50,544 nt of DNA from contig DATKWH010000131.1 of NCBI GenBank assembly GCA_035529655.1, forward strand, positions 1-50,544, read 5' to 3'. The notes under the pieces are model-generated. The model did not search any database. It worked only from the letters and a program-made list of their open reading frames with translations, and was not told the DNA's origin. Both the position numbers and the translations under genes were made by a program. Shown here piece by piece: positions 3,434 through 47,621 of this stretch. This DNA is from Candidatus Bathyarchaeia archaeon (lineage in GTDB: Archaea > Halobacteriota > Syntropharchaeia > Alkanophagales > Methanospirareceae). How positions within the stretch are numbered: the stretch's first letter is position 1; each line of letters opens with the position of its first letter.

Positions 3434-3633
3434 TCAAACCAAAAACAACTTCTAAAAACCCTTTGATTCGGTTATTCTATTTCTTCTTCTCTGTTTGCAT
3501 GTATAACCTCTGGGTAATCGTGAATATGATGTTGAGTATCGTGTTAGGGATGATATCCGACAAACCGTTGGTAACGGCAAAATGGCTTCTTGTTGTTCTT
3601 CAGCTGACTCTGATGGAGAAGGGGCCGCCGTAA
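3434..3633 (+). mobile_element. remnant of the 3' end of an IS transposase gene (dead fragment)
   Basis: Nucleotide and protein similarity to the reverse complement of 17957-18155: ...VYNLWVIVNMMLSIVLGMISDKPLVTAKWLLVVLQLTLMEKGPP* versus ...MYNLWVIANMILSIVLGMISDKPLVTAKRLIVILQMSMAEKPPP*. In-frame stop upstream. Begins 6 nt after the rfcL stop. Confidence 0.8.
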
Positions 3634-5258: not shown

Positions 5259-5302
5259 ATCTACTTTCGGAGCTACTGTATACAGTACATCCGAAAGTAG
5301 AT
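5259..5302. repeat. near-perfect 44-bp palindrome (ATCTACTTTCGGA gc TACTGTATACAGTA ca TCCGAAAGTAGAT)
   Basis: Read directly: 13-nt arms plus a perfect 14-nt central palindrome. 23 nt of it (5262-5284) recur at 23223-23245 with one mismatch. Confidence 0.85.
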
Positions 5303-5743: not shown

Positions 5744-8700
5744 CTATTTCCGTAGAAATCCAATAAATTGTTCAAATGACTTTCCTTCTTCCCAAATCTT
5801 TTTGTGTATCTTGAACCGGATAGGCCCTCCACTTATCTCAATTTCAATATCACCTGCTTCAGTTATTATTTCTTGCTCTTGTTTGAGATTTTCTGCTTCA
5901 ATAACTTTATCTTGAATCTTTTTGCCAATATCTTCGACAAAGCATATATTGCTTTTTATATTATCCTCAGTCATCTCTAAACCCGTCAATTTAATAACAC
6001 AGAGAACATATTTGTCTGATTTATCCCTTGCTTCTTTTGCCTGGGTGAGAGTCATTCTTACAAAGTCTTGAGATGTTGCTTTCACTTCTATGTAAAAACA
6101 TAGTCTCTCTTCTCTTTTAATCTCAATTATAGTTTCCATGTCATCTTCTACAAAATCATACTCTATAACAAAGTCGCTCCCTACTCCAGTTCTTTCTACT
6201 TTAAAGCCTTCGTTTTCAAGCACAGTTTTAAGAAGATTCTCAATCAATGACCCCAAAGATTGATTTCTTCGAATTTGTTCTCTAATCCGAATTCGTTCTT
6301 CAATTTCACTTATGAATAATTCTTTCTCATTCTCTGCTAATTGGGCAATTTTGCTTAAGTTACTTGGATTTGCCATAAATGTGCCAAATAATGAGCTCAT
6401 TGCCTTCTCCAGTTCTAACTTGGTTTTCTCATCTTTTGCAACAATGCACATCGTAAGTTCGCCAATACCTACATTAAGTTTATTCAAAAATCTTGATGGA
6501 TTATCTTCCCTACAATTCTGTAGCAACTCTTCATGGTCCTCAAGAAGTAAGGCTAAATAGTGGGCATTAGGTTTTTCACTTTTATTTTTGTGTACAGGAA
6601 CCCATGACCGATTTTTAAGCGTGGCTAACCAAAACGCAGGATATATTTTATGTTTTGTGCCACATTCGCAGTTAACCTCTAGAGGAGAATTCCACTGGGT
6701 ATCTACTTCAACTACATATTTTAAAAGAAAATCTAGAAACTTCCTAGCCTTATCTTTACTTTTTCTGATCGTAGCAATAATACCTTTGTCTTGTGTCTCA
6801 AGGAAAGCTATCTTACTTACTACAACATCGTCTGCTGCTTCATGTTCTTTTTCCTCTTCCAATTCTTCAGAAGGCAATAAAAGAGATTCCAAAACCTCTT
6901 GAGATAGCTTTTCTTCATCTTTATATAGCGGGTTAGTTAAAATTAGTCCTTCGTCACCAAGTTTATCCCATTTCTCTTTTTGTGCGATTTCTTCATAATA
7001 TAAGGAAGAAAATATAAAATCTTGAGGGAAAAGACTATCGTAATCTCTTGCAATTTCATTCCAAACATTTTTAGGTGCAAGAAGTTTTTCTTTGTTTTCT
7101 TTACCTAACCAAGCAAATATATTATCTTTCGAGGAAAGGATGGGGTATCCTTCAAAATATTCAATGTTATCATGTTCTAATAACCACTTAAACAATTCCA
7201 TATTGGCTTGGAGATACTGATCACCTTCTGGCTGGGGTTGCCGTTTAATTTTACTTACCACTTCATTCAAAACTTCATCTTGTTTTTTTGTTGGTAGTAA
7301 ATTTTGGATGCTCTCGGAGATCCTTGAATGAAGCAACAAATTGCGAGTATCCTCTTCTAATTTATTAGAAATATCTTTGAGTTTTTCATCAATTCCGTCA
7401 TCCCTAAGCAATTCTGGCTTTTTCTTAAATGTTCCATTCTGATTGGGTAAAATATTTTTACTATCAAACAACCCCTCCCTTTCTACTTCAAGTAAAATTT
7501 CATAAAAAGCGTTAAGCGTATTTAATTCGTCTGCATCCGCAGCCAACTTAGTTTTAAAACTTTGGAGGTCTTTACAACGCTCTATTTCTTCTGCTAGTTT
7601 TTCGATCGTAATTTCGCTATCTGTTAAATTTAATCCCAACGATTTCCATGCACCGAATATTTCTACCCATTCGATGGCAAGTGCCTTTGCTGGCATCTTA
7701 TCTTTATAGATTAAAAATTGGTGACACAAATCCCATAATTTTTCTATTTCTTCCTTTTCTCCACTCTCTATAATCGGTATGATACCTTCATTAGGAGATA
7801 TGAAATCCCCATTCTCTGTCTTAAAAACTTCTACATCCATAATTTCATTAATAAGGTTCTTTAGTAGATCTCTATATCCATCTTTATCAAGCCACTCTTT
7901 AATTGGAGGATCGCCTAAATTTAGTAGAATGTGAGGATTTTCCCATCCATTAAAGCATGTATTTGAGATTAGTTTGATAAACAGTTCGCTGGCATTTTCC
8001 AAAAAGCTTCTATTCCTGTTAATTTCATCGGTATTTTCTTTACCTAGGAAGATTCCATCTCTTCTTTCTGTTGGCTCAAACCTTCTGCTATTAACCACTA
8101 CAGGGAAAGGTAAATCCTGAGTCCCAAAAAGGGGAAAAGCAAGAAAAATTTTTGGGACATCTCGTAAACTCTCTATTCGATAAGTTCCATCATCTTGCTT
8201 TTTCCTTTTTACAGCAATATCTACATCATCCCTTAGTATCAATAATTCATGATTTTCTGGTGGTTTTTCTCCACCCTCTTCTTTTACTATTTTATGCATG
8301 CCATCAGGTTCGTTGTTTCCCTTAACTAATTCAAATTTCAACTTACGACTTTGATCCGTAATCTCGATAATTCCTAATTTATCGTTAAAAGCAAGGACAA
8401 AAGGAGCAATTTTAGTTAGCGCTTCAATTCCTTCTTCGGCAGTTTTTAGAGAGATGTCATTTAATGAGTACTCGTACTCGGCGGTGTAAGGCAGATTCCC
8501 TTTAATGGTTACCAATGATTTTTGATATTTTGTCCATGTGTCTTCCATAAGTTTTTTGATATCATCAGAAGATGTTCCATCTCTATCTATTCTGAAGTCA
8601 AATTTTTTCCCATCTGTTCTAACTCCTCTAACGTTTACTTTCTTTGATAAAAGGTGTGTTACAAGAAAACCTGTTCCGAATTTACCAATATCCTGCTCTT

Positions 8701-8979: not shown

Positions 8980-9097
8980 AACATTACCACGAGCCCGTCC
9001 AGATATGTCTGTATTCTTCTTTGGCTACTACATTAACTTACTTTACATCAGTATTTAAACCTTTAGCAGAATATCTTTGGAATATTCTTTATCCATT

Positions 9098-9172
9098 TCA
9101 TGGCGGCCCCTTCTCCATCATACCCATCTGAAGAAGAACGATTAGCATTTTCGCCGTTATCCGCGGTTTATC
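9098..9172 (-). mobile_element. short remnant of IS transposase 3' end
   Basis: TCATGGCGGCCCCTTCTCCATCATACCCATCTGAAGAAGAACGATTAGCATTTTCGCCGTTATCC aligns (~75% by eye) with 17957-18030. Confidence 0.7.
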
Positions 9173-9363
9173 TACATTAAAATCCTTCATAGTGGTATCC
9201 TCTTAGATCTTTTACCCAGCGGCTTATAGCCGACCTTATCGTGTTGGTAATATTCAACATATCGAATTCATTCTCCATAATATTCACCAACTTCATCAGG
9301 TTTTATAAAATCACACCAAATGCACCCCATAATATCATCTTAAGAAAAGGGAGTGGATCCTAT

Positions 9364-10257
9364 TCATCCAAACGATGGACATTTTTCTTTATAATTACAA
9401 AAATTGCATTTCCATTGATTTCTTTCTCCCACAGAGATAGGTTTTCTCCTTCCAAGCCAGTAATCCAAAGCCCATTCCATTTTTTTACTAAAAAATCTTG
9501 GATCGAATTGGAATTCCTCTGTATGAATCTCCTCTCTTGTAATTTGGTAGATATATTTCAGCTTTATCACATCCGATAGTTTAGGTATTTTTGCTATCTC
9601 TTTATATATCTCTTTAATTTGATTATCCCAAAAAAATCTATTATCATAAAGAGGCTGTGATTCTGAAGGTATTTTTAGACTATTCATGTATTCCTCACTT
9701 AAAGAAATGGCATCGGGGTCTATTCCAAAAGCAGTGTAAACTTCTTCTAAACCCATACTCTCATTCATCATAGAATTCAATCCATACCAATAAATCATCC
9801 CCTGTATTTTGTCTCGATAAATCTGTGAAGATGATGGGCGTCTATTGCTCGTTCTCGTCTTCGTCTCTGTCATTTGGGTTTTCTTAAACTTCCTCCTACG
9901 ATTCAACGAATCTCTGCCCTCTTCATCTATTTTTCTAAGTTCATCAACGGAACAAAGGATCAATACAGAACCAAATTTAAAAAAAACCTGTAGTTCACGA
10001 GTTAGTCCAATATTCTTATACTGTTTTACACCCATCAAAATGTTATGGAGATTTGTATGCAATCTGTCTGAAGGTGTTTTTATCTTTACTTGCCTTACCT
10101 TACTAATTTCAAGTAGTAGATCGTCATGAATTACTTTGCCCCCTTCCATTTCTTTTGTGCTAATAGCCCCATAATGACGTTTAAGATCTACTTGCATCTC
10201 ACACCAAAATTGTTGTGCGATTGATGATGCCGATACGATATGTAATTCCATTCTCAC
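9364..10257 (-). CDS. Cas4-like PD-(D/E)xK (RecB-family) nuclease with four-Cys Fe-S cluster signature, with an internal basic insert
   Basis: 297 aa. N-terminal Cys in IAQQFWCEMQ; CSVDELRKID and MTETKTR (D...ExK); C-terminal WKCNFCNYKEKCP (C-x2-C-x5-C), the DUF83/Cas4 Cys arrangement. No cas genes or CRISPR array in the window. Confidence 0.55.
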   Translation of the reverse strand: MRMELHIVSASSIAQQFWCEMQVDLKRHYGAISTKEMEGGKVIHDDLLLEISKVRQVKIKTPSDRLHTNLHNILMGVKQYKNIGLTRELQVFFKFGSVLILCSVDELRKIDEEGRDSLNRRRKFKKTQMTETKTRTSNRRPSSSQIYRDKIQGMIYWYGLNSMMNESMGLEEVYTAFGIDPDAISLSEEYMNSLKIPSESQPLYDNRFFWDNQIKEIYKEIAKIPKLSDVIKLKYIYQITREEIHTEEFQFDPRFFSKKMEWALDYWLGRRKPISVGERNQWKCNFCNYKEKCPSFG

Positions 10258-10379
10258 TCTCCAATATATCTAAAGTTCTCTTTGGAATAAAGTTTGTGTC
10301 TATCGATCCTCTTTTTGCACCCACTCTTACGTCTTTAGGCGGCTCACTTTCATCCTCGACAACCGCTGCGCATAAAGGG

Positions 10380-10462
10380 GGCTTTGCATTTTTAATACCT
10401 CTTTTGACCGATTAAAAATGCAGATGCCAGAATAAAAATGCAGAATGAAAAAATGGAAAGTT
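10380..10462 (+). repeat. MITE-like end-module copy A (degenerate right end)
   Basis: GGCTTTGCA at 10380. 30 nt later come two direct repeats, GATTAAAAATGCAG (10410) and GAATAAAAATGCAG (10430), then degenerate AAAAAATGGAAAG. Colinear with copy B at 13661-13746. Confidence 0.7.
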
Positions 10463-10728
10463 TAGGAGCAAAAAAGAAGCACTAAGAACTTTTAAGTTTA
10501 TGGCGGTTGTGCGTATATAGGATAAATGATTCGCCTAACAGTTTTTTATACTCCTTCGGATATTTGATATATATTGTGGTGGTAATGGGTGCGTTGGGTA
10601 CACTTGCCCAAATAATAGCAAGTGGACGGATAATTTTTTAAGCTACAAAATTCAGAAAGTATAGTTACCTTTCGCACTCCTCACCTTATCAAAAGAGGGG
10701 TAAAGAAAAAAGAGGATGTAGTGGTGTT

Positions 10729-11034
10729 ATGGAAGATAAAGAGCGTTTTGAGAAGGCTTTAGGAGCGATTGATCTAAAAGAGCTAGGTGAAATGATAGAA
10801 AAAAGCAATCGACGCGGTAGACTATTTGAGGAACACTATGCAGAGTTTCTGGAAAGGTACGCTGGCAAAATAGTAGCTGTTTCTGATTCTGGAAAGATTG
10901 CATCAGTTCCGTTTACCAAAAATGTCGCAGAAGCGAAAAGGAACTTTAAAACTTTGGAAAGGAAATTGGGAAAAGAGAACCTGCGTGCTGCCGCTTCTTA
11001 TATTCCAGAGCCTAACAAAGTAATGTTATTATAG
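10729..11034 (+). CDS. small DUF5678-like protein
   Basis: 101 aa. EEHYAEFLERYAGKIVAVSDSGKIASV resembles the DUF5678 core (..Y.GkwVAi.dgkvv). Followed after 3 nt by a retropepsin-like ORF, a pairing remembered from archaeal and cyanobacterial genomes. Confidence 0.35.
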   Translation: MEDKERFEKALGAIDLKELGEMIEKSNRRGRLFEEHYAEFLERYAGKIVAVSDSGKIASVPFTKNVAEAKRNFKTLERKLGKENLRAAASYIPEPNKVMLL

Positions 11035-11037
11035 ACA

Positions 11038-11271
11038 ATGTGCTTAGGGTACTTTTCTAAAGAAGGTCGACCAAAGTTGGATGCAGTTCTATTCAGCACC
11101 AATTTATCAGCACAAGGGTCTATAAAGTTCCTTTTGGATACTGGAGCCGACATAACTTCGATAACTCTGAAAGATGCTTTGAGGTTAGGGTTCAATGTGG
11201 ATGAAATAGTTACTGAAGAAAATTGTAACTTAGTGAAGGTGTTGGAGGGGTACAGATGTTTATCCAATTAG
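11038..11271 (+). CDS. retropepsin-like (clan AA) aspartic protease, apparently C-terminally truncated
   Basis: 77 aa with the FLLDTGADITSIT active-site motif (DTGA). Typical family members are roughly 120-140 aa. Confidence 0.5.
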   Translation: MCLGYFSKEGRPKLDAVLFSTNLSAQGSIKFLLDTGADITSITLKDALRLGFNVDEIVTEENCNLVKVLEGYRCLSN

Positions 11272-11338
11272 AGATAGCTTAAGGTTTGTTTTCATTTTTT
11301 TATGCACATAAAAGGAGATAGAAAAGCAGGATGGGCAA

Positions 11339-13375
11339 ATGTGGGTAATTAATGATGATTCGCTATTTGGATCAATTATAAAGAATCCCGGTGCGAATAA
11401 AGAAACTATTGAAGCAATAAGTGAGTATGTCTATGATGAAATAAAGTTAGATACTATTTTTAAGATTGAAAAATGGTTAAATGCTTTGTTAGCTCAAGAG
11501 CGAGTTTTGCCTATAACAAAAAAAAGACATCGAGATCACTTACTGCATGCATGCAGAATAGCTGTAATGGGAGAAAAAATTTTAAAGGGAAAAATATCCA
11601 CTAAAAATAATGAAGAGTTTACGTTACTAGATTTGATTACAGAACTGTTTAAAGAAGGATATAAAGATCCAAAGAAAAGAATTTGGCGTGAATATTTTGA
11701 TTATCATGAAATAGACTTAAATGACGAAGAGAGCTTGCAGGAAAAAATACTACAAATATGGTACATTGCTTCTTTGTTTCATGATATCGGATTTATTTAC
11801 GAAACATTTGAAGAGACATGGAGAAGCATTGGAGTTTTAAAGGACACTCCCAAGTTTTCGGAATTATTCTCTGATGTTAATGCCAGTCTTATGAAATTTC
11901 AAAAAAGTTATTTACTTGAACAAACTCAAAAGGAATATAAGTTTGAAATCCCTGGAAGATTTGGCCACGCAGCTGCAGGAGCATCAATATTATATAATTT
12001 AGTCGGTAAAAAAAATCTAAATTGTGATATAGCGGCGGATATCGTTTATCATCATTCAATAGCTAGTCCAATGGCATTTACAGATCATCCTCTCTTGGCT
12101 CTATTAATATTACTAGATGAAGTACAGGAATGGCAACGGCCGGTTATATTGAGAGGCAGAAGTCCGGAAAGAGACTCCGAGCCAGATTTACTTAATACTG
12201 AGGTTCAGTCGGATAGATCTAATAGTTTCGAAATGACTGTAGACAATAATTTAAAATTTGAGTTTATATTGAATTATGGAGATAGACTAAAAATTTTACA
12301 AAAGACAGATTTTAGCTTCCCCTATTTATTATATTCTAAATTTAACAATTTTCAGTATTTAAGGGTTAATGGTACCAGAACAAATAAACTACCAGAAGCC
12401 GTAGTTAAGAAAATTTGTGGGTTAGACAACCTTGAGCTTTCAGGTGCTGTAAAAATCCAGTCCGAAGGCGAATTAGCAAAACATTGGACTCGGCAATGTG
12501 ACCTCCTCAGACGATGGGCTATAGAAAATGGTAACATAACTATAAGAGATTGGCTAACTAATGTTGTCAACATTGATTATAAGACGCCCGTATTTGAAAG
12601 TACTTTAAATATATTTGAATCGCCACTAAAAATTGATGCTAATTTTGAGACTGAAGCTATACAAACTGCTTTCGATCGTTATTTAGAAGATAAAGATATT
12701 ATTGATGAGGAGTTCAACGCAACTCATACCTATAAAAAAGCTAACAATGATCAAGTAATCTGGCATCCACATATAGAAAGGACCTTAATTTTAAAGAATA
12801 ATTCGGCTAGAGAAACCGTAGAGCGTCTGACAGCTTATTTTGGTAATATTAGAATTAAAAAATATGGGAATATTAAAGCATACGCTGGATCCATCCCATT
12901 GAAGTATAAAATATTATTGCCCGAGAAGAGAATTAATGGCGGAATAGAGTATTATGATTGGATTGGACTTGTTTTTTTTCTTAAAGAAAGCGGGTTGGTA
13001 TTAGGTACTGAGCCACTGAAAATTAATTATGATATAGAAATATTTATGCCCACTTCAGATTTAAAATGTGGGTTAATAGATGAAATCAACAACACGCATT
13101 TGTATCCTATAAAAAAGGGGAAAGTAACTGTATGTTGGGACAGAGACTTATTTTGGGAGAAGAGATTTTTTGGAACAATAGCGTATGAAAGTATAGAAGA
13201 GCGGGACCGTATTTTATCTAATCTATCATCTATAAAAAATAAACTTCAAGCCTTCAATCTAGAGCTCGATTATGACGTTCAATATCCCGGTCGTGGTGAT
13301 CGTCCTGTTACAGTTGAGTTTACAGAACTAAAGACCGGAGAATCAGCAGGGCTAATCTGGTTTTCCAGAGACTGA
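11339..13375 (+). CDS. HD-domain metal-dependent phosphohydrolase/nuclease-like protein with a ~400-aa unrecognised C-terminal region
   Basis: 678 aa. HRDHLLHACRIA, SLFHDIGF, FGHAAAGA, VYHHS and LLDEVQEW give the H..H / HD / H / HH / D pattern of the HD superfamily. The rest matches no family I recognise. Confidence 0.6.
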   Translation: MWVINDDSLFGSIIKNPGANKETIEAISEYVYDEIKLDTIFKIEKWLNALLAQERVLPITKKRHRDHLLHACRIAVMGEKILKGKISTKNNEEFTLLDLITELFKEGYKDPKKRIWREYFDYHEIDLNDEESLQEKILQIWYIASLFHDIGFIYETFEETWRSIGVLKDTPKFSELFSDVNASLMKFQKSYLLEQTQKEYKFEIPGRFGHAAAGASILYNLVGKKNLNCDIAADIVYHHSIASPMAFTDHPLLALLILLDEVQEWQRPVILRGRSPERDSEPDLLNTEVQSDRSNSFEMTVDNNLKFEFILNYGDRLKILQKTDFSFPYLLYSKFNNFQYLRVNGTRTNKLPEAVVKKICGLDNLELSGAVKIQSEGELAKHWTRQCDLLRRWAIENGNITIRDWLTNVVNIDYKTPVFESTLNIFESPLKIDANFETEAIQTAFDRYLEDKDIIDEEFNATHTYKKANNDQVIWHPHIERTLILKNNSARETVERLTAYFGNIRIKKYGNIKAYAGSIPLKYKILLPEKRINGGIEYYDWIGLVFFLKESGLVLGTEPLKINYDIEIFMPTSDLKCGLIDEINNTHLYPIKKGKVTVCWDRDLFWEKRFFGTIAYESIEERDRILSNLSSIKNKLQAFNLELDYDVQYPGRGDRPVTVEFTELKTGESAGLIWFSRD

Positions 13376-13411
13376 TGCGGGAAGATGGATTCAACAGTTA
13401 GATGAGTGTAA

Positions 13412-13662
13412 ATGTTAGAGCGATTGGACTCCAGATTATATGAGGATGGTAGCTTTGAAATAAAGGAGAAGCCGTTTTATTTACCGCAAGGAAGCGAAGT
13501 TGCGCTATTTGAAGCGGCCTATAAGAACAAACTTCCAGTTATGCTGAAGGGCCCTACAGGAAGTGGTAAAACACGATTAGTTGAGTACATGGCCTGGAAG
13601 TTAGGTCGGCCACTCTTTACCGTTGCCTGTCATGACGATTTAAGCGGGAATGACCTGACGGG
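13412..13662 (+). pseudogene. 5' fragment of a CbbQ/NorQ-family AAA+ ATPase gene, truncated by MITE copy B
   Basis: First 84 codons are nearly identical to 46791-47042 ([26 protein letters not shown]...[38 protein letters not shown]). Homology stops exactly where GGCTTTGCA begins; the frame then reads [10 protein letters not shown]. Confidence 0.9.
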
Positions 13663-13746
13663 CTTTGCACTCAAAATAGTAATTTTCGTTGATTAAAAGT
13701 GCAGACACATGATTAAAAGTGCAGATGTGAATAAAAGTGCAAAGCC
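13661..13746 (+). repeat. MITE-like end-module copy B (complete, 86 bp)
   Basis: GGCTTTGCACT ... GATTAAAAGTGCAG (13691) ... GATTAAAAGTGCAG (13711) ... GAATAAAAGTGCAAAGCC (13729-13746). Termini are inverted repeats; internal direct repeats are spaced 20 and 18 nt. Confidence 0.8.
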
Positions 13747-13759
13747 CATAAAGGGGAAA

Positions 13760-14347
13760 CTATATATATCTTTTCCATAAATCAACGATTCCTCTCCGTT
13801 TTAGCTCAAACAAGCAATTAGCACACGCCCGGACATCTTCTTTCGCGTCGTGTGCACCTTCAAACGGAGTTTCGAAAAGCTTTAAATGAAGTTCTGACAA
13901 GCTGGGCCATTTATAGCTGCCATACCTGCCCGGTATCCTACAGAACTCTGTTGATTGCCTCATTGTGCATATCTTTGGAATTGTGGAAAGATTGTTTGGT
14001 ATATTCTCTCGTATAAATTCAGCTTCTACAATCTTTGCATCAAAGTCAATATTGTGTGCTACTAATATTTCGGTCTGCTCCAGAAAGGATGAAAAATCAA
14101 GAAGTGCCTCCCTCAGAGGAATACCCTCATCCATCGCTCTTTCAGTTGTAATTCCGTGAATTTCCATAGCCTCTCCTGGAATCGTAAAATCGTCTGGTTT
14201 AATTAACATATCTCTACTCTCAACCTCCTGCTCTTCCTCATCAAAAAATGCCCACGCTATTTGAACTAAACGAGGCCAATTTTCCAAATCTGTAGCAGGG
14301 GCAGAATAATTTCTACCTGTGGTTTCTGTGTCAAAGAAGAGATACAT
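13760..14347 (-). CDS. DEDDh 3'-5' exonuclease (DnaQ/epsilon-like)
   Basis: 195 aa. ExoI FFDTETTG, ExoII LVAHNIDFD, ExoIII GAHDAKEDV. Confidence 0.85.
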   Translation of the reverse strand: MYLFFDTETTGRNYSAPATDLENWPRLVQIAWAFFDEEEQEVESRDMLIKPDDFTIPGEAMEIHGITTERAMDEGIPLREALLDFSSFLEQTEILVAHNIDFDAKIVEAEFIRENIPNNLSTIPKICTMRQSTEFCRIPGRYGSYKWPSLSELHLKLFETPFEGAHDAKEDVRACANCLFELKRRGIVDLWKRYI

Positions 14348-14404
14348 GAACTATCCTCCGGCATTTCATATATTAGGTACTTAGGTTAATAAATGTTCCG
14401 ATTT

Positions 14405-14450
14405 TCACGGCGGGCCCTTCTCCACCATACTCATCTGAAGAACATTTAGC
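14405..14450 (-). mobile_element. short remnant of IS transposase 3' end
   Basis: TCACGGCGGGCCCTTCTCCACCATACTCATCTGAAGAA matches 9098-9135 and the end of the IS gene at 17957. Confidence 0.6.
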
Positions 14451-17956: not shown

Positions 17957-19606
17957 TCACGGGGGCGGTTTTTCAGCCATACTCATTTGAAGAATAACTA
18001 TCAACCTTTTCGCCGTTACCAACGGCTTGTCTGATATCATCCCTAACACGATACTCAATATCATATTTGCGATTACCCAGAGGTTATACATGCAAACGGA
18101 GAAGAAGAAATAGAATAACCGAACAGCAGGATTTTTAGAAGTTGTTTTTGGTTTGAAGTCCCCTTCGACTCGGTAAGATGTCTCGATTCCCCATCGCCTT
18201 TTGAACAGGTTCGCGTGCGTTTTGGCGTTTTTCTCGTTTATATCTAAGTCTGTGGCAAAACATACCGCTCCATCTTCGCTTCTCTTACTTTCGACTACAA
18301 AGATAGTGACGAATTTTTTGAGGTACGGTGGTTTAAGTCGCCTTAATTGATGCCTCGCTATTATTGGAAAACCGTACTTTTTGTTCTTTTCGATTATCTT
18401 CTTCACCTTTGGAGTCTTCACCGCTTGGATGATGAAATGTAGCCCGTATTTCTTCAAAATATATACTACTTCCGTTCGATAGAACCACCGGTCCATATAG
18501 ACTCTGTTAATTTGAATCCTCTTCGTCGCATAGCTAAGGAGTTTATCTATAACTTTCATCATTTCTCTTTCTCGATTTCCACCGCTTTCTACTGGTAAAG
18601 CGAAAAGGGTGAATCTTGTGCCGTTTTCCACAATGCAAATCGTTCCGAATTTGTAGGCATGGTGCGTTCCTCTTGTGGGCTTTGTACCTGTAACCATCTC
18701 CGTATCGCCATCTCCATAGAAGAGCCAATCGGTGAAATCAATCGCAACGTCCTTTTTTCCCTTGAATAGCTTCGGATTGCGCTTTTTTGCAATCTTGAAA
18801 ATGGTATCAAAAGCGTTGATGAATATCTGCATTATCTCTTCTTTACTTCTCTCTTTCTTTTCTCCACCGTATTTCGTGTGGTATTTTATGTGATAGAATA
18901 GCGTATCGGCATCTGGAATCCTTCTGTTTGGGTGAAGTTCTTTCAAAGTTTTGGATGCATTTTCAGCAAAGTCGTTGGTCATAGCTGCGTGAAGTAACAA
19001 ATTCAACATATCCTCAACGGAATACTTCAGGTTATGATGTTCAGAGGAGATGTTTATGAGCGAGAATATCTTCTTCTCCGCTAATCTGCATATCTTCTTC
19101 ATATTCCCCATCTTAAGCTTCTTCTCACCTCCAACGCTTCTTGGGTCAATAAGTCGTATCCCTTTTACATTTGCTTCTTCGGTTATCTTCCACGCCGTCC
19201 ACTTTGCTAAATCCTTTATCTCCCCCGCCGTACAGCGACTAAAGGTCCTATGTCCAGGAATCTCGCCTTCTCTAAAACCTAAATTTTTCGCCTCTTCGGG
19301 GTATCTTTTAAGGACTTTCGCTAGTGTGTGGTAAGATACAATCCCCATCAACTCTTTGAAAACAGCCGACTTCACTATCGCCGAAGGCGGATATTGAGTA
19401 TGCCATACATTTTTGTATTCACGTTTCACTAACTCAGAAATAGGCGGAAGAGCGAACGCACTGAGAAGCTCTGAAATCTTCAAAGCCTTCGAGCTAAGCC
19501 GTCCGAAAATTTTATCTACTTCCGCTTCCAATATGTCTTTTGTGGAGTCTTCTTCTGTCAAGGGGAACACCTCCACCCTTGGGGGGATCGCTTTTTGCGG
19601 GGCCAT
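17957..19606 (-). mobile_element. IS element: intact DDE transposase gene (549 aa, IS4/IS5-superfamily-like); element ends not resolved
   Basis: VAIDFTDWLFYGD and ...MDRWF...RRWGIETSYRVEGDFKPK motifs typical of DDE_Tnp_1-type transposases. 3' end repeated as remnants at 3434, 9098 and 14405. Confidence 0.75.
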
Positions 19607-19830
19607 CCCCTCAAGGATTGTTTATCCTTCGGTTACAGGCTATTTGAAGCCCATTCATCTGCCGCTTTATTTATCATCTTCGCCTTGCACTTTAACATAT
19701 TTTTCGTAGGATTATCGCCTACTATTTGTATATTGGTGGGTGAGTATATAAAGGTTGATGGTATTTTCGTATGAATCTTATAAATAAACCTACGTATTTA
19801 TATACTCGTCATACGATATTATACTATAAA

Positions 19831-20109
19831 ATGATAGATAATTCGGATGAAAGCGAAGGCGATCCGCCGAAGAAGCTTGAGTACCGGAAACTGCCAAGCA
19901 AAGTGGAAGAACTCGTTGACGATGAACGGGCGAAGATAACGCGTACGGCGAACATCACCTTTGATAAGAGACAGTATTTGGTTCGGTTCCCAAAGGAGAT
20001 TGCAGAGGAATTGGGCTTGAGTACAGAGCATAAGGTGCGATTCACCCTCATTAGTGCGAAAACAAGGACTGATGAAGAGCCTGAGCTGACGATGGAGGTG
20101 GTGAAATAA
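19831..20109 (+). CDS. AbrB/SpoVT/MazE-type swapped-hairpin DNA-binding protein
   Basis: QYLVRFPKEIAEELGLSTEHKVRFTL matches the AbrB-like core. ATG 19831 preferred over track start 19771 because TATTTATATAC (19795-19805) lies about 30 nt upstream. Confidence 0.45.
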   Translation: MIDNSDESEGDPPKKLEYRKLPSKVEELVDDERAKITRTANITFDKRQYLVRFPKEIAEELGLSTEHKVRFTLISAKTRTDEEPELTMEVVK

Positions 20110-20322
20110 ATGAAGGAAGAGTTTAATAACACAGAAAAGCGAATACTCAAGGTGTTGTACCAACACCATAAGGCGCTGTCAACGAGCAAGGTAGCGAAAT
20201 ATACTGGATACTCGTACAACACGGTGAAGAAATATCTAATAAGCCTTCATAAGCGGAAATATGTGAGATATATGCACCACGGAAATGCGATCTATTGGTG
20301 GCTGATGGAAGAAAGGGGATAG
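20110..20322 (+). CDS. small winged-helix (MarR/TrmB-like) DNA-binding protein
   Basis: 70 aa. EKRILKVLYQHHKALSTSKVAKYTGYSYNTVKKYLISLHKRKYV has an HTH + wing pattern. Start abuts the stop of the AbrB-like gene. Confidence 0.5.
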   Translation: MKEEFNNTEKRILKVLYQHHKALSTSKVAKYTGYSYNTVKKYLISLHKRKYVRYMHHGNAIYWWLMEERG

Positions 20323-20416
20323 AAATGAGGCTATGTTTATGTGTTTGATGTTTTATTAAAAGAGGAGTGAAAGTATATGGATAGATGTAATAACTAGGTC
20401 TATAGATCGTCCGCTT

Positions 20417-23134
20417 ATGCCATTGAGTTGGAATGAAATAAGGAAGAGGGCAATTGCATTTTCGAGTGAATGGAAAGAAGAAACCAGCGAGAGCGCGGAG
20501 GCACAAACCTTTTGGAATGCGTTCTTTAAGGTTTTTGGTAGAGAGCGCCGGGTTGTTGCGCTGTTTGAAAAAAACGTCAGAAAATTAGGCAACAAAAGGG
20601 GCGCAATTGATCTGTTTTGGGAAGGTAAGCTAGTTGTAGAACACAAATCAGAAGGAGAGAGTTTAGATAAAGCATACGATCAAGCATTAGATTATTCTGA
20701 AGGATTGAGCGATGAACAATTGCCAAAATATGTGATTGTGAGTGATTTCAGACGATTTAGGTTACATGATCTCGAGAACGATAAACAGTATGAAATTAAG
20801 CTTGAGGAGTTGGCAGAGAAGACCCATTTGTTCGAGTTCATGCGTGGTGGCAAAGAAAGATCGTACGAGGAAGAAGACCCGGTCAATATAAAAGCTGCGG
20901 AACTCATGGGGAAATTGCACGATTCTTTAAAGGAAAATGGTTACGTCGGACACCCACTTGAAGTTTTACTTGTTCGTCTGATGTTCTGTCTTTTTGCGGA
21001 TGATACCGGTATTTTTGAAAAAGATCAGTTCACTCGGTATATCGAAACTAAAACGAACATAGATGGTTCTGACGTAGGATTGCATCTCAATGCGATATTT
21101 CAAACATTGAATAAACCAGAGGAAGAGCGACAGAAGAACTTGGATGAAGAACTTCAGTTATTCCGGTATGTTAATGGTTCCTTATTTGAAGAGCGGTTTG
21201 AAGATCCTTCGTTCGATAGTGACGGACGAAAAATCCTACTAGAGTGCTGTCATTTCGATTGGAGTCACGTATCACCGGCAATTTTTGGCTCTCTGTTCCA
21301 ATCCGTAATGGATCCGAAAGAACGGAGAGATCTCGGTGCGCATTACACGTCCGAAGAGAACATTTTGAAAACGGTTCGAGCACTCTTCCTGGATGACTTA
21401 CGGCACGAGTTCGAGTTGCATAAGCATAACAAGCGATATTTGCAAGAGATGCTGGAACGAATAGGGGCGATGAAGTTTCTCGACCCTGCGTGTGGCTGTG
21501 GTAACTTCTTAATTATTGTGTATCGAGAATTACGACGGATTCAAATTGAAATCCACAAGCAACTACGGAAATTAGAGGGTCGACTTGGGCAACGAGTGCT
21601 GGACATTGAATTTGCTCATGACCTTAACGTTGACGCGACGTACGGTATTGAGATCCTGGAATTTCCTGCACGAATCGCCGAGGTGGCTTTATGGTTAGTA
21701 GACCATCAAATGAATGTGGAACTGTCAAAAGAATTAGGAGAGTATTATGCGCGGCTTCCGCTCGAAAAAGCACCGAATATTGTTAACGGAAATGCACTTG
21801 GACTCGACTGGAAGGATATCGTACCCCCAGAGGAGCTGACCTATATTCTAGGGAACCCGCCCTATGTTGGGAAAAAGAAACGAAGTGCTGAGCAAAATGA
21901 TGATATGATTTTAATATGTGGTAATATCAAGAATTATGGGATTCTTGACTATGTTTGTTGTTGGTATGTCAAAGCGGCTGAATACATTAAAGATACCAAA
22001 ATAAAAGCGGGGTTTGTTTCAACGAATTCGATAACTCAAGGAGAACAAGTAGGCATTTTATGGGACTACCTCCTTAATAAGGAAAAAATTAAGATTCACT
22101 TCGCTCATAGAACTTTTAGATGGTTTAATCAAGCAAGGGGTAAAGCACAAGTCTATGTAGTAATCATTGGCTTTGCATCTTTCGATACAAAATTAAAGTT
22201 ACTTTACGATTACGAAACGCCAACCTCGGATCCTGTAGGTGTAAAAGCCAGTAATATTAATCCATATCTCGTGAATCAGAAAGATATTATTTTTAAAAAT
22301 CGAAGTAAACCTTTATGTAGCGTCCCGGAGATTTCATTTGGGAGTATGCCGAATGACAACGGCAACTTTTTGTTTACGGACTTAGAAAAAGATGAATTCT
22401 TAAAAGAAGAACCTGGAGCGATAAAATACATTTTCCCTTTTATCTCAGCCAGAGAGTTCTTACATAATGAAAAACGGTGGTGTCTTTGGTTACAGGATGT
22501 CAATCCGTCAGAAATTAGAAAATCACCAAAAGTGGAGGAAAGGATAAAAAACGTCAAGGCCTATCGATTAAAGAGCAACAGGGAGAGCACAAGAAGACTG
22601 GCTGAGACACCTTATCTTTTTGGTGAGATTAGACAACCAAAAAACGATTATATCTTAATACCTCTTCATTCATCTGAGCACAGAAAATATATCCCTATTG
22701 CCTTTTTTCCACCAACAGTCATTGCCAATAATTCTTGCAGCGTTATCGAAAACGCTTCATTATACCATTTCGGTGTACTTACGTCTGCCATGCACATGGC
22801 ATGGATGCGCCATGTTTGCGGTCGCTTAGAAAGTCGATATCGCTATTCCAATGTTTTGGTTTACAACAATTTTCCATGGCCAGAAAACCCGACGGAAAAG
22901 CAAGTCGAAGAAGTGGAAGCCCGAGTAAAGGATTTATTAGCTGTGAGAGAATCCTATGCTGATACATCTCTTGCGGATCTTTACGATCCTATTCTTATGC
23001 CGAAAAAGCTCTTAGACACTCATAAAAAGCTTGATAGAGTGGCAGAACGCTGCTATCGGCCCAAGGCATTCAAGACCGATTTGGAGCGGTTGCAGTTCCT
23101 ATTTGAGTTGTATGATGCGTACTTTACCGATTAA
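20417..23134 (+). CDS. MmeI-family type IIL restriction-modification enzyme (fused endonuclease / N6-adenine methyltransferase / TRD)
   Basis: 905 aa, colinear with remembered MmeI: MPLSWNEIRKRAIAFS, IDLFWEGKLVVEHKS (D-x9-E-x-K nuclease), LDKAYDQALDY, PINIKAAELMGKLHD, FGSLFQSVMD, GAHYTSE, FLDPACGCGNFL (motif I), GNPPYVG (motif IV), STNSITQGEQV, RLESRYRYS. Confidence 0.9.
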   Translation: MPLSWNEIRKRAIAFSSEWKEETSESAEAQTFWNAFFKVFGRERRVVALFEKNVRKLGNKRGAIDLFWEGKLVVEHKSEGESLDKAYDQALDYSEGLSDEQLPKYVIVSDFRRFRLHDLENDKQYEIKLEELAEKTHLFEFMRGGKERSYEEEDPVNIKAAELMGKLHDSLKENGYVGHPLEVLLVRLMFCLFADDTGIFEKDQFTRYIETKTNIDGSDVGLHLNAIFQTLNKPEEERQKNLDEELQLFRYVNGSLFEERFEDPSFDSDGRKILLECCHFDWSHVSPAIFGSLFQSVMDPKERRDLGAHYTSEENILKTVRALFLDDLRHEFELHKHNKRYLQEMLERIGAMKFLDPACGCGNFLIIVYRELRRIQIEIHKQLRKLEGRLGQRVLDIEFAHDLNVDATYGIEILEFPARIAEVALWLVDHQMNVELSKELGEYYARLPLEKAPNIVNGNALGLDWKDIVPPEELTYILGNPPYVGKKKRSAEQNDDMILICGNIKNYGILDYVCCWYVKAAEYIKDTKIKAGFVSTNSITQGEQVGILWDYLLNKEKIKIHFAHRTFRWFNQARGKAQVYVVIIGFASFDTKLKLLYDYETPTSDPVGVKASNINPYLVNQKDIIFKNRSKPLCSVPEISFGSMPNDNGNFLFTDLEKDEFLKEEPGAIKYIFPFISAREFLHNEKRWCLWLQDVNPSEIRKSPKVEERIKNVKAYRLKSNRESTRRLAETPYLFGEIRQPKNDYILIPLHSSEHRKYIPIAFFPPTVIANNSCSVIENASLYHFGVLTSAMHMAWMRHVCGRLESRYRYSNVLVYNNFPWPENPTEKQVEEVEARVKDLLAVRESYADTSLADLYDPILMPKKLLDTHKKLDRVAERCYRPKAFKTDLERLQFLFELYDAYFTD

Positions 23135-23184
23135 AAGTGCAGCTTTCGGAATGAAAGTGCAAACGTGAATAAAAGTGCAAAGCC
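23129..23184 (+). repeat. MITE-like end-module copy C (right-end half only)
   Basis: GATTAAAAGTGCAG (23129), GAATGAAAGTGCAA (23149), GAATAAAAGTGCAAAGCC (23167-23184). Same 20/18-nt spacing as copy B. The first repeat supplies the stop codon of the MmeI-like gene. Confidence 0.8.
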
Positions 23185-23222: not shown

Positions 23223-23245
23223 TACTTTCGGAACTACTGTATACA
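23223..23245. repeat. half-copy of the 5259-5302 palindrome
   Basis: TACTTTCGGAACTACTGTATACA versus TACTTTCGGAGCTACTGTATACA at 5262-5284 (22/23). Confidence 0.8.
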
Positions 23246-46618: not shown

Positions 46619-46790
46619 TAGATAGGGTTGTTTTAAGCTAAGCGTTTCTACACTGTGTCTCCTCTCTCGCATTGACTTTTCACACCTTCTGGCTTTATTA
46701 CGCCGATGCCGTGGCACGGCATCCAAACACCAAAAGTAGAAAAGATTTAAATATTTGCGTGCTCTTGTAGTCACTATCAGGTGAGTATAT

Positions 46791-47621
46791 TTGTTAGAAA
46801 GATTGGACTCCAGATTATATGAGGATGGTAGCTTTGAAATAAAGGAGGAACCATTTTACTTACCGCAAGGAAACGAAGTTGCACTATTTGAAGCCGCCTA
46901 TGAGAACAAACTTCCAATTATGCTGAAGGGCCCTACAGGAAGTGGTAAAACACGATTAGTTGAGTACATGGCCTGGAAGTTAGGTCGGCCACTCTTTACC
47001 GTTGCCTGTCACGATGATTTAAGCGGGAATGACCTGACGGGAAGGTATATCATCAAAGGCGACGAAGTTGAGTGGATTGATGGTCCTCTTCTTATGGCGG
47101 TAAAAAATGGTGGGATCATTTATCTGGATGAAGTCGTGGAAGCACGAAAAGACACCACGGTCGTCATTCACCCCTTAACAGATTATAGAAGATCTTTGTT
47201 GATAGAGAAACTCGGTATGATATTCCACGCCCCGGATGAATTTATGCTGGTAATTAGTTACAATCCCGGTTACCAGAGCGTCTTGAAAGAATTGAAACAG
47301 AGCACAAGACAGAGGTTTGTAAGTATCAATCTTGGCTGGCCAAGTGAAGACTTAGAAACTCAAATTGTTCATCAGGAGACGGGCGTCGAAGAGGATACTG
47401 CAAGAAGGTTGGTAAAAGCCGCGAATAAAATACGAAATCTCATAAATCAAGGACTCGAAGAAGGCGTTTCTACCAGAGAGCTAGTTTATGCAGGCACTTT
47501 GCTCAAAAGTGGCGTGCCAATGAGAGACGCGCTCTATTCGACTATGACAGAGCCGTTAACGCACGATGCAGATCTCAAAAGAAGCATAGAAGAAATCCTT
47601 AAAAATTACTTTAACCTGTAG
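46791..47621 (+). CDS. AAA+ ATPase of the CbbQ/NirQ/NorQ/GvpN (MoxR-like) family
   Basis: 276 aa. Walker A GPTGSGKT, Walker [16 protein letters not shown], and a TTG start as in the ORF track. Confidence 0.85.

Follow-up and report, generated by a model that had tools for sequence, protein, structure and literature searches.

The element and its cargo

The stretch of DNA analysed here (the window; 50,544 nucleotides) is contig C131 (DATKWH010000131.1) of a 1.54-Mb metagenome-assembled genome (MAG) in 159 contigs, assembly GCA_035529655.1, which is titled Candidatus Bathyarchaeia archaeon and belongs to the Methanospirareceae in the GTDB lineage. Our subject is a candidate transposon of 3367 bp (10380-13746) that lies between an RNase_T gene and an Exo5/Cas4-like gene. 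Its left end (LE; copy A, 10380-10473, plus strand) consists of a terminal repeat, GGCTTTGCATTTTTAATA (10380-10397), two inward-pointing 14-nt units (10410-10423 and 10430-10443) and one variant unit, GTTTAGGAGCAAAA (10460-10473), and has no inner terminus. Its right end (RE; copy B, 13661-13746, plus strand) carries 10-bp terminal repeats, GGCTTTGCAC and GTGCAAAGCC, and units at 13691, 13711 and 13729; because the terminal unit (13729-13746) reads GAATAAAAGTGCAAAGCC, the inverse of the start of copy B, this end is a complete 86-bp MITE (a miniature transposable element with inverted repeats). Both ends begin with the nonamer GGCTTTGCA, at 10380 and 13661, and the 14-mers GAWTAAAARTGCAG start at 10410, 10430, 13691 and 13711. 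Chance alone would give 0.43 occurrences of the nonamer and 0.18 of the 14-mer in the window, and 7 of each are present. Directly outside the two outermost termini stands the same target-site duplication (TSD), CATAAAGGG, at 10371-10379 and again at 13747-13755. An initial annotation, which proposed a composite transposon bounded by two MITEs with a 9-10 bp duplication, had placed the modules, the 14-mers and the flanking repeat exactly where we find them on re-reading the sequence. The shorter of its two lengths is the right one: the tenth base, G, already belongs to the terminal repeat, of which it is the first base, and another member of the family (L013) has a different base there, so the duplication measures 9 bp.

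Three open reading frames (ORFs) and a gene fragment, all on the plus strand, lie between the ends. The first ORF (10729-11034, 101 aa) gives a weak DUF5678/SpoVT-like hint below the cut-off (Pfam E=0.083), and the second (11038-11271, 77 aa) is a short retropepsin-like fragment (Asp_protease_2, E=1.1e-4, 23.3 bits against a cut-off of 24.3). The main cargo (11339-13375) encodes a 678-aa protein with a Cas3-HD-like N-terminal region (residues 110-258; PADLOC Cas3 HD E=2.8e-6, Pfam HD E=0.038) and a large remainder that has no assignment; a sequence search of the protein against PDB chains returned no match. Behind it follow some 83 codons from the 5' end of a cbbQ/norQ-type AAA+ gene (13400-13660; AAA_5 E=8.7e-10). 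This fragment stops exactly at the left tip of the MITE, and positions 13400-13662 are 94% identical to 46779-47041, the start of an intact cbbQ gene that runs from 46791. Among the cargo labels of the initial annotation, that of the cbbQ fragment stands, and those of DUF5678, retropepsin and HD have sub-threshold matches only. We also considered the Exo5 ORF (9364-10257) as the missing 3' half of cbbQ, displaced by an inversion, and rejected it: it is an Exo5/Cas4-like gene, and its frame stops short of the junction. Profile searches of the encoded proteins found no transposase match within 10380-13746, and an Rfam search of window positions 10200-13900 yielded nothing meaningful.

A family of elements with 9-bp target duplications

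Elements with related ends were drawn from this genome, from related genomes and from metagenomes. Every outward-facing left terminus was paired with every right terminus at a distance of up to 20 kb, and a pair was counted if the abutting 9-mers were identical or agreed at 8 of 9 positions. With the true flanks, 26 end pairs matched, representing about 17 unique elements, as against 1, 0 and 0 pairs when the flanks were shifted by 4, 8 and 13 nt. Other copies with duplications of their own, as the initial annotation had predicted, do therefore exist. The elements measure 66, 66, 106, 488, 521, 892, 1031, 1094, 1269, 1393, 1795, 2321, 2851, 3034, 3367, 4954 and 5601 bp, and they include MITE-only relatives of 66 bp and 106 bp with their own 9-bp TSDs, such as the 66-bp MITE at C66:3284-3349 of this genome (TSD GTTATCGCC).

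Each TSD-verified element has its own, different 9-bp duplication, which speaks for transposition by a staggered 9-bp cut and not for site-specific recombination. The latter explanation would make the unit a cassette moved by an integron-like, Xer/dif-like or integrase att-type reaction, with CATAAAGGG as the crossover core. A defence island in which conserved modules of about 90 bp separate gene cassettes does bear a superficial resemblance to a cassette array, and the sequence of the insertion site recurs in other genomes. Against this stand the changing 9-mers, which leave no fixed core, the match of the termini to the IS903 group, and the fact that no integrase or recombinase gene is associated with the elements, the only linked mobility gene being that of a DDE transposase; we give this explanation next to no credence. 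The unit inserted at its present site with the 9-bp duplication CATAAAGGG. Taken together, the segment 10380-13746 is very probably a non-autonomous cargo transposon, that is, a mobile insertion cassette or MITE-bounded composite, of an archaeal insertion sequence (IS) family related to the IS903/ISAba12 group.

Of the 68 genomes in the order, 9 contain the RE motif, for the most part genomes of the same genus, and a control with the reversed pattern gave 0 matches. The motif is also found in 52 metagenome contigs and in 14 GTDB contigs, where hits are titled Methanophagales and, in a few cases, Thermoplasmatota, UBA346 or LacPavin Methanobacteriota; no copy was found in viral contigs. The MAG records L145/G024 (DATKXZ010000014.1), L139/G017 and L147/G060 belong to genomes placed in the genus or family of the window, and the titles on the L145, L139 and L147 records (respectively 'Desulfobacteria bacterium', 'Methanosarcinales archaeon' and 'uncultured Halobacteria archaeon') are likely taxonomic mislabels.

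Transposase and family assignment

An element with the same termini and an intact transposase, of the kind that the initial annotation had suggested looking for, is present in the same genome. This sister element (C149:174-5774, 5601 bp, minus strand; LE at 5774, RE at 174) is flanked by the TSD GGTATGAGG and encodes an NYN-domain protein, a 415-aa protein with SWIM and DDE_Tnp_1 domains, a 95-aa protein, a 66-aa helix-turn-helix (HTH) protein and a 905-aa type IIG restriction-modification protein. The gene for the 415-aa protein (C149:3667-4914) is the sole copy in the MAG and runs antisense to the LE-to-RE direction. Its product matches Pfam DDE_Tnp_1 (PF01609) with E=6.9e-22 and contains a SWIM zinc finger in addition. 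In a tblastn search against plasmids, the IS903B and ISSpu20 transposases were the best matches (23% identity over 72% of the query, E of about 6e-8). An alignment with IS903B brings DSTG/DSSG, ADGAY and Y-x2-R-x3-E-x6-K into register and aligns both catalytic aspartates, and it shows the first 95 or so residues, which hold the SWIM domain, to be an archaeal addition.

The LE is linked to this IS903-like DDE transposase in more than one genome. The 3' end of the transposase gene reads straight into the LE in G024:C39 and G026:C36, whose copies are 73-84% identical, and a 40%-identical homologue from a Thermoplasmatales MAG has an LE of a sister subtype within 30 nt downstream; an LE-type end directly follows the transposase gene in three genomes (G024, G026 and G072). 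L132 has short remnants of the transposase beside its LE, and L129 contains a truncated copy. The sequences make it likely that the C149 element holds the family's transposase. The element in the window would be supplied with transposase in trans, the only intact candidate in the genome being the 415-aa protein of the C149 element, so that mobilisation by this protein is what we infer.

With regard to the family, the initial annotation had pointed to IS4 on account of the 9-bp duplication. The termini read GGCTTTGCA(C/T)..., that is GGCTTTG..., at both ends, as in the IS903 group, and the 9-bp duplication seen in the 26 end pairs agrees with that group as well. Given the similarity of the transposase, the published ends and the 9-bp repeat, we consider the family IS5/IS903-group-like, matching the IS903/ISAba12 group of the IS5 family, and the IS4 assignment is not upheld. 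The IS1 family, whose ends have the form GGnnnTG, was dropped, the LE-linked transposase being DDE_Tnp_1/IS5-like. An IS5-type gene on C67 and the ISH3-type gene at 17957-19606 of the window were rejected as partners, as they have different ends (TTTCACGGCGGCCCCTTCTCC) and no linkage to the modules. Three observations count against the assignment or leave it incomplete. First, the 415-aa protein reaches 137.3 bits with the NCBIfam IS5 model NF033579, just under the curated cut-off of 140, although this is by far its best family match. Second, the fragmented MAGs sampled yielded no compact IS (about 1 kb) that consists of the transposase gene alone between two ends and has a TSD. Third, in all full-length copies further genes separate the transposase from the RE.

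Anatomy of the ends

Alignment of the TSD-flanked members shows that the two ends of the family are asymmetric. The LE reads GGCTTTGCA(C/T)yTAAAATAc, followed by about 10 nt and two inward 14-nt units that end in GCAGA. The RE has two to four units in the same direction, of which the last bears the tip ...GTGCAAAGCC. The units are direct repeats at a spacing of 18-20 nt. In terms of sequence, the MITE of the family is an LE fused to a terminal RE unit, from which it follows that copy A is a canonical LE and not a truncated MITE. Copy A is 83% identical to the LE of the C149 element over 93 nt, including sequence past the units. The initial annotation's picture of two MITEs as ends therefore holds for one side only. 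Copy B has inverted repeats, relatives with TSDs and ends in common with the transposase-bearing C149 element, as expected of a MITE, and copy A, which has no inner terminus, does not qualify as one by itself. The unit as a whole has two ends, three cargo ORFs plus the cbbQ fragment and a single TSD, CATAAAGGG, as expected of a composite or mobile insertion cassette.

The idea of a MITE-bounded composite is supported beyond this locus, since a whole MITE serves as one end in several other TSD-flanked members: as the RE in L087, L089 and L100, as the LE in L129, and at both ends in L013. Such composites are thus a recurrent architecture of the family. A variant end type, with units GACTTTAGGAGCA, can pair with a standard RE inside one TSD, as in L089, L100 and L123, and the unit at 10460-10473 of copy A is of this variant kind. 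The variant type also comprises palindromic mini-elements in this genome, of the form GGCTTTGCTCCAAAAsTCTG...GACTTTAGGAGCAAAGCC (C66:3359-3406, C15:6768 and 10020, and C123:20710-20796), which have the same GGCTTTGC tips as the family and a different internal unit; the one on C66 lies directly beside the 66-bp MITE, in the same promoter-proximal position.

The end of IS903 has two domains. By analogy, the GG(C)TT tip of our family would be the cleavage domain and the adjacent TGCACTTTTAAT motif the transposase-binding domain. The 14-nt units would represent the binding domain without the tip, and such extra sites would aid the assembly of a synaptic complex. The units are accordingly described here as putative transposase-binding sites.

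Insertion locus and origin of the unit

If the unit arrived by transposition, related strains might be expected to preserve the empty site. The joined flanks of the element read ...TCATCCTCGACAACCGCTGCGCATAAAGGG|GAAACTATATATATC, and no orthologous empty site was found when they were searched against 66 genomes of the taxonomic family. In three congeners this search recovered an RNase_T gene in a different neighbourhood. Contigs that encode an identical RNase_T have only filled sites or contig breaks at the MITE. These results weigh against our reading, and the empty site in related strains that the initial annotation had envisaged was not found; what exists is an uninterrupted target at other loci of other genomes. 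There the sequence ...CTGCGCATAAAGGG(G)AAAnTATATA... stands upstream of unrelated genes, in G059, G019 and G034; it is likewise present at C66:404 of this genome.

The missing empty site would also fit two independent insertions, one of which left a left-end relic and the other MITE B, so that resident genes were bracketed and the two 9-mers are coincidental or locally duplicated. This explanation can further appeal to the fact that MITE B has no duplication of its own, so that some complex history must be admitted. We consider it highly improbable for several reasons. A 9/9 match abutting both outer termini has a chance of about 4e-6, and the outermost LE and RE have a 9-mer in common in about 17 elements, with shifted controls close to nil. 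The cbbQ fragment is a displaced piece of a paralogue, and the joined flanks give a sequence that is found intact elsewhere. The gene for the 678-aa HD protein is absent from all 15 other species of the genus (15/15) and patchy within the order; its absence from congeners fits acquisition by transfer.

Insertion as a single unit, which we prefer, can be accounted for by a simple sequence of events. In a donor genome, a canonical LE would have lain upstream of the DUF5678-like, retropepsin-like and HD-protein genes, and the 86-bp MITE B would have inserted into a nearby cbbQ gene. The transposase would then have paired the distal LE with the outer end of MITE B and moved the intervening DNA as one unit, carrying along the first 83 or so codons of cbbQ. 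This is the simplest three-step order for the history in the donor, and we put it forward as a reconstruction.

Two further observations concern the locus. A promoter-like unit, ...CTGCGCATAAAGGG(G)AAAnTATATATA, followed by a GGAGG leader, occurs in L036 (1501-1547; G059), L037 (G019), L038 (G034) and at C66:404 of our genome (G000); the genes that follow it are unrelated and include those of a 432-aa protein and a 159-aa TIR-like protein. The unit could be a promoter cassette common to genes of such islands. In addition, the RNase_T (DEDDh) gene of the window departs from that of three congeners (L030-L032) over its final 13 or so codons (13760-13802): the protein ends in ...IVDLWKRYI-stop in the window and in ...RRRSIL-stop in the congeners, and it seems that the DNA bearing the TATA-like target has remade this end of the gene.

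Insertion upstream of archaeal promoters

Right after the right-hand duplication lies a signature, GAAAC-TATATATA (13756-13771, plus strand), that resembles a transcription factor B (TFB) recognition element (BRE) and TATA box and overlaps the 3' end of the convergent RNase_T gene. A similar arrangement recurs in the flanks of the family, where 9-10 nt, an A-run and TTTATATA regularly come after the RE. Of 54 independent RE flanks, 40 have A at position 12, and the profile across positions 16-23 is TTTaTATa. The motif TTTATATA, with at most one mismatch, begins at a 0-based offset of 15 in 12 cases and of 17 in 4; by comparison, 1.2% of random windows contain it anywhere in the range +10..+22. 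A strict test, which required at least three A in positions 11-14 and a TATA motif with at most two mismatches at fixed spacing, was passed by 17 of the 54 flanks as against 0.44% of random windows (P=2.9e-27). The choice of target is non-random as a statistical pattern, a preference that the initial annotation had overlooked. It is also oriented: among the reconstructed targets of non-nested TSD-verified elements, read by eye, about 11 have the motif on the RE side and 1 has it on the LE side. In 9 of the 24 testable cases, an ORF with an ATG start begins 16-50 nt after the TATA box, a distance to be expected of archaeal promoters whose transcripts have a short leader or none.

Could the modules themselves be regulatory? 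They might be cis-regulatory arrays, of the upstream-activating-sequence or 'iteron' kind with two-helical-turn spacing, that sit upstream of promoters and bracket the 3.4-kb block only incidentally. This would account for the constant distance by which the RE precedes BRE/TATA in a third to a half of the copies, for direct-repeat units at 18-20 nt spacing, and for the real genes that often begin 16-50 nt after the TATA box. It does not account for terminal inverted repeats that bracket unrelated DNA of 66 to 5601 bp, for the different perfect 9-bp duplications that flank the modules, or for a left-end type that abuts a DDE transposase gene. Moreover, the promoter lies outside the duplication and so belongs to the target, not to the element. 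As a primary explanation, regulatory arrays are thus very unlikely; the modules may have a secondary regulatory effect on the neighbouring promoter.

Transposition into such sites, which we favour, would proceed by a staggered 9-bp cut directly upstream of a BRE-like A-run and TATA box, with the RE coming to lie beside the promoter. So sharp a spacing points to a mechanism that selects the target and not to intergenic insertions that merely happened to survive. The transposase would read either the BRE/TATA DNA itself or the TATA-binding protein (TBP) and TFB bound there. For the first option there is a single anecdote: the original cbbQ target of MITE B, for which the intact paralogue serves as a proxy and not as an orthologous empty site (47031-47055, plus strand; GACCTGACG then GGAAGGTATATCAT), has the layout of 9 bp, a purine run GGAAGG and a TATA-like run TATATCAT, which hints at direct recognition of DNA. 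Two findings are at odds with promoter targeting. About half of the RE flanks have no recognisable TATA box, and in the window itself the TATA-like run falls within a convergent gene's 3' end and has no gene downstream of it.

As a tentative proposal, and one about which we retain considerable doubt, we suggest that Archaea may here have their first DDE transposon family in which promoter targeting is built in, be it that BRE/TATA is read directly or via TBP/TFB; the RE, with its array of putative binding sites, would then be set down 9 bp upstream of the BRE. Our literature search found no description of BRE/TATA-proximal transposon targeting in archaea; in yeast, Ty3 uses TFIIIB for targeting. 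If the proposal is true, such sites would offer the element a safe landing, the neighbouring gene could come under the influence of the transposase or a host factor, and archaea would possess in this family a natural means of inserting cargo upstream of promoters.

A second, decayed element and neighbouring repeats

The window contains a second, decayed element of the family (19690-23184, plus strand), in which the transposase and LE side has been replaced by an ISH3-family IS. Its genes comprise a homologue of the 95-aa gene of C149 (19771-20109), a homologue of the C149 HTH gene (20110-20322) and an MmeI-type restriction-modification gene (20417-23134; MmeI domains E=1.6e-90), and positions 19700-19934 are 85% identical to the C149 element. 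The element closes with an RE-only copy (23129-23184), flanked by GCCCGCAGC + TAAAATTTTATATA. No left partner was found for the RE at 23184, nor a second GCCCGCAGC adjoining an end. Counting the elements of the window and that of C149, at least three elements of the family in one genome carry defence-type genes; the cargo of the family comprises restriction-modification genes, an NYN-domain gene and the Cas3-HD-like 678-aa protein.

The ISH3-family IS (17957-19606, minus strand) encodes a 549-aa transposase (NF033541, E=1.4e-44). Fragments of its end, TTTCACGGCGGCCCCTTCTCC, lie at 9096-9173, 14403-14442 and, inverted, 3434-3631, and TTTCACGGCGGCCCCTTCTCC also adjoins the RNase_T gene in congeneric genomes (L030, L031). 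Another motif, GGAGTTACTTTCGGAACTACTGTA, forms part of a 44-bp palindrome at 5259-5302 and recurs at 23223-23245, about 40 nt past the RE at 23184, as well as just upstream of an RE in another genus (L015, G033); it is probably another small repeat element. Further upstream in the window, a 934-aa protein (5744-8548, minus strand) is similar to PADLOC TmtA along almost all of its length (E=1.3e-147). Together with the DEDDh and Cas4-like genes, this match confirms the defence-island setting of the transposon.

Significance

As a composite or cassette transposon, the element is a new member of an already known type of mobile unit. What is new is that this IS903-like family with a SWIM-DDE transposase is archaeal, has asymmetric ends made of several units and inserts in one orientation upstream of BRE/TATA. 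The family provides a checkable route of mobility for defence-island genes in uncultured methane-oxidising archaea of the anaerobic methanotrophic group ANME-1: ends, transposase and duplication are all defined, and captured fragments of host genes record earlier events. Oriented insertion upstream of BRE/TATA amounts to a strategy of bacterial (TnGBS) and yeast (Ty3) style. Were the preference intrinsic to the transposase, it would link transposition to the archaeal basal transcription machinery, and it could become a tool for placing DNA beside promoters without disrupting genes.

Comparison with known systems

Mobile insertion cassettes (MIC231 of the IS231/IS4 family) and composite transposons have IS-type ends, passengers without a transposase and a TSD, and are mobilised in trans. 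Our element differs from these in that an entire MITE, taken along with part of the gene that it had interrupted, forms one of its ends, and in that its cargo is of defence type and its host an archaeon.

The closest relatives in terms of ends and transposase are found in the IS903/ISAba12 group. IS903B has the terminal repeat GGCTTTGTTGAATAAATC and a 9-bp direct repeat (PMC10569121), and the ISAba12 group has the terminal repeat GGCTTTGTTGCACAAA, a 9-bp TSD and a MITE derivative, MITEAba12 (PMC6382973). Common to this group and our family are GGCTTTG termini, the 9-bp duplication, a DDE_Tnp_1 transposase with aligned DDE and YREK residues, and MITE derivatives. The family departs from the group in its archaeal hosts (ANME-1/Methanophagales and some Thermoplasmatota MAGs), in a transposase that is only 23% identical and has an extra N-terminal SWIM zinc finger of about 95 aa, in asymmetric ends with 2-4 subterminal copies of the putative binding motif, in the kilobases of cargo that it often carries, and in insertion upstream of BRE/TATA.

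As for target behaviour, the TnGBS, ISLre2 and ISKra4 elements, whose DDE transposases belong to the Mutator superfamily, insert in one orientation, a short and constant distance upstream of bacterial sigma-A promoters and with a particular end next to the promoter, and such promoter insertion has been described as a 'safe haven' that spares coding sequence (PMC3942029). In archaea, ISH6 was reported only to duplicate an AT-rich motif (PMC3942029). The likeness between the TnGBS/ISLre2/ISKra4 elements and our family lies in oriented, fixed-distance insertion with one end beside the core promoter and is confined to this behaviour. The transposase is p-MULT/IS256-like in TnGBS/ISLre2 and DDE_Tnp_1/IS5-like, and unrelated, in our family, and the promoter beside which the element comes to lie is of the -35/-10 type there and a BRE/TATA promoter here.

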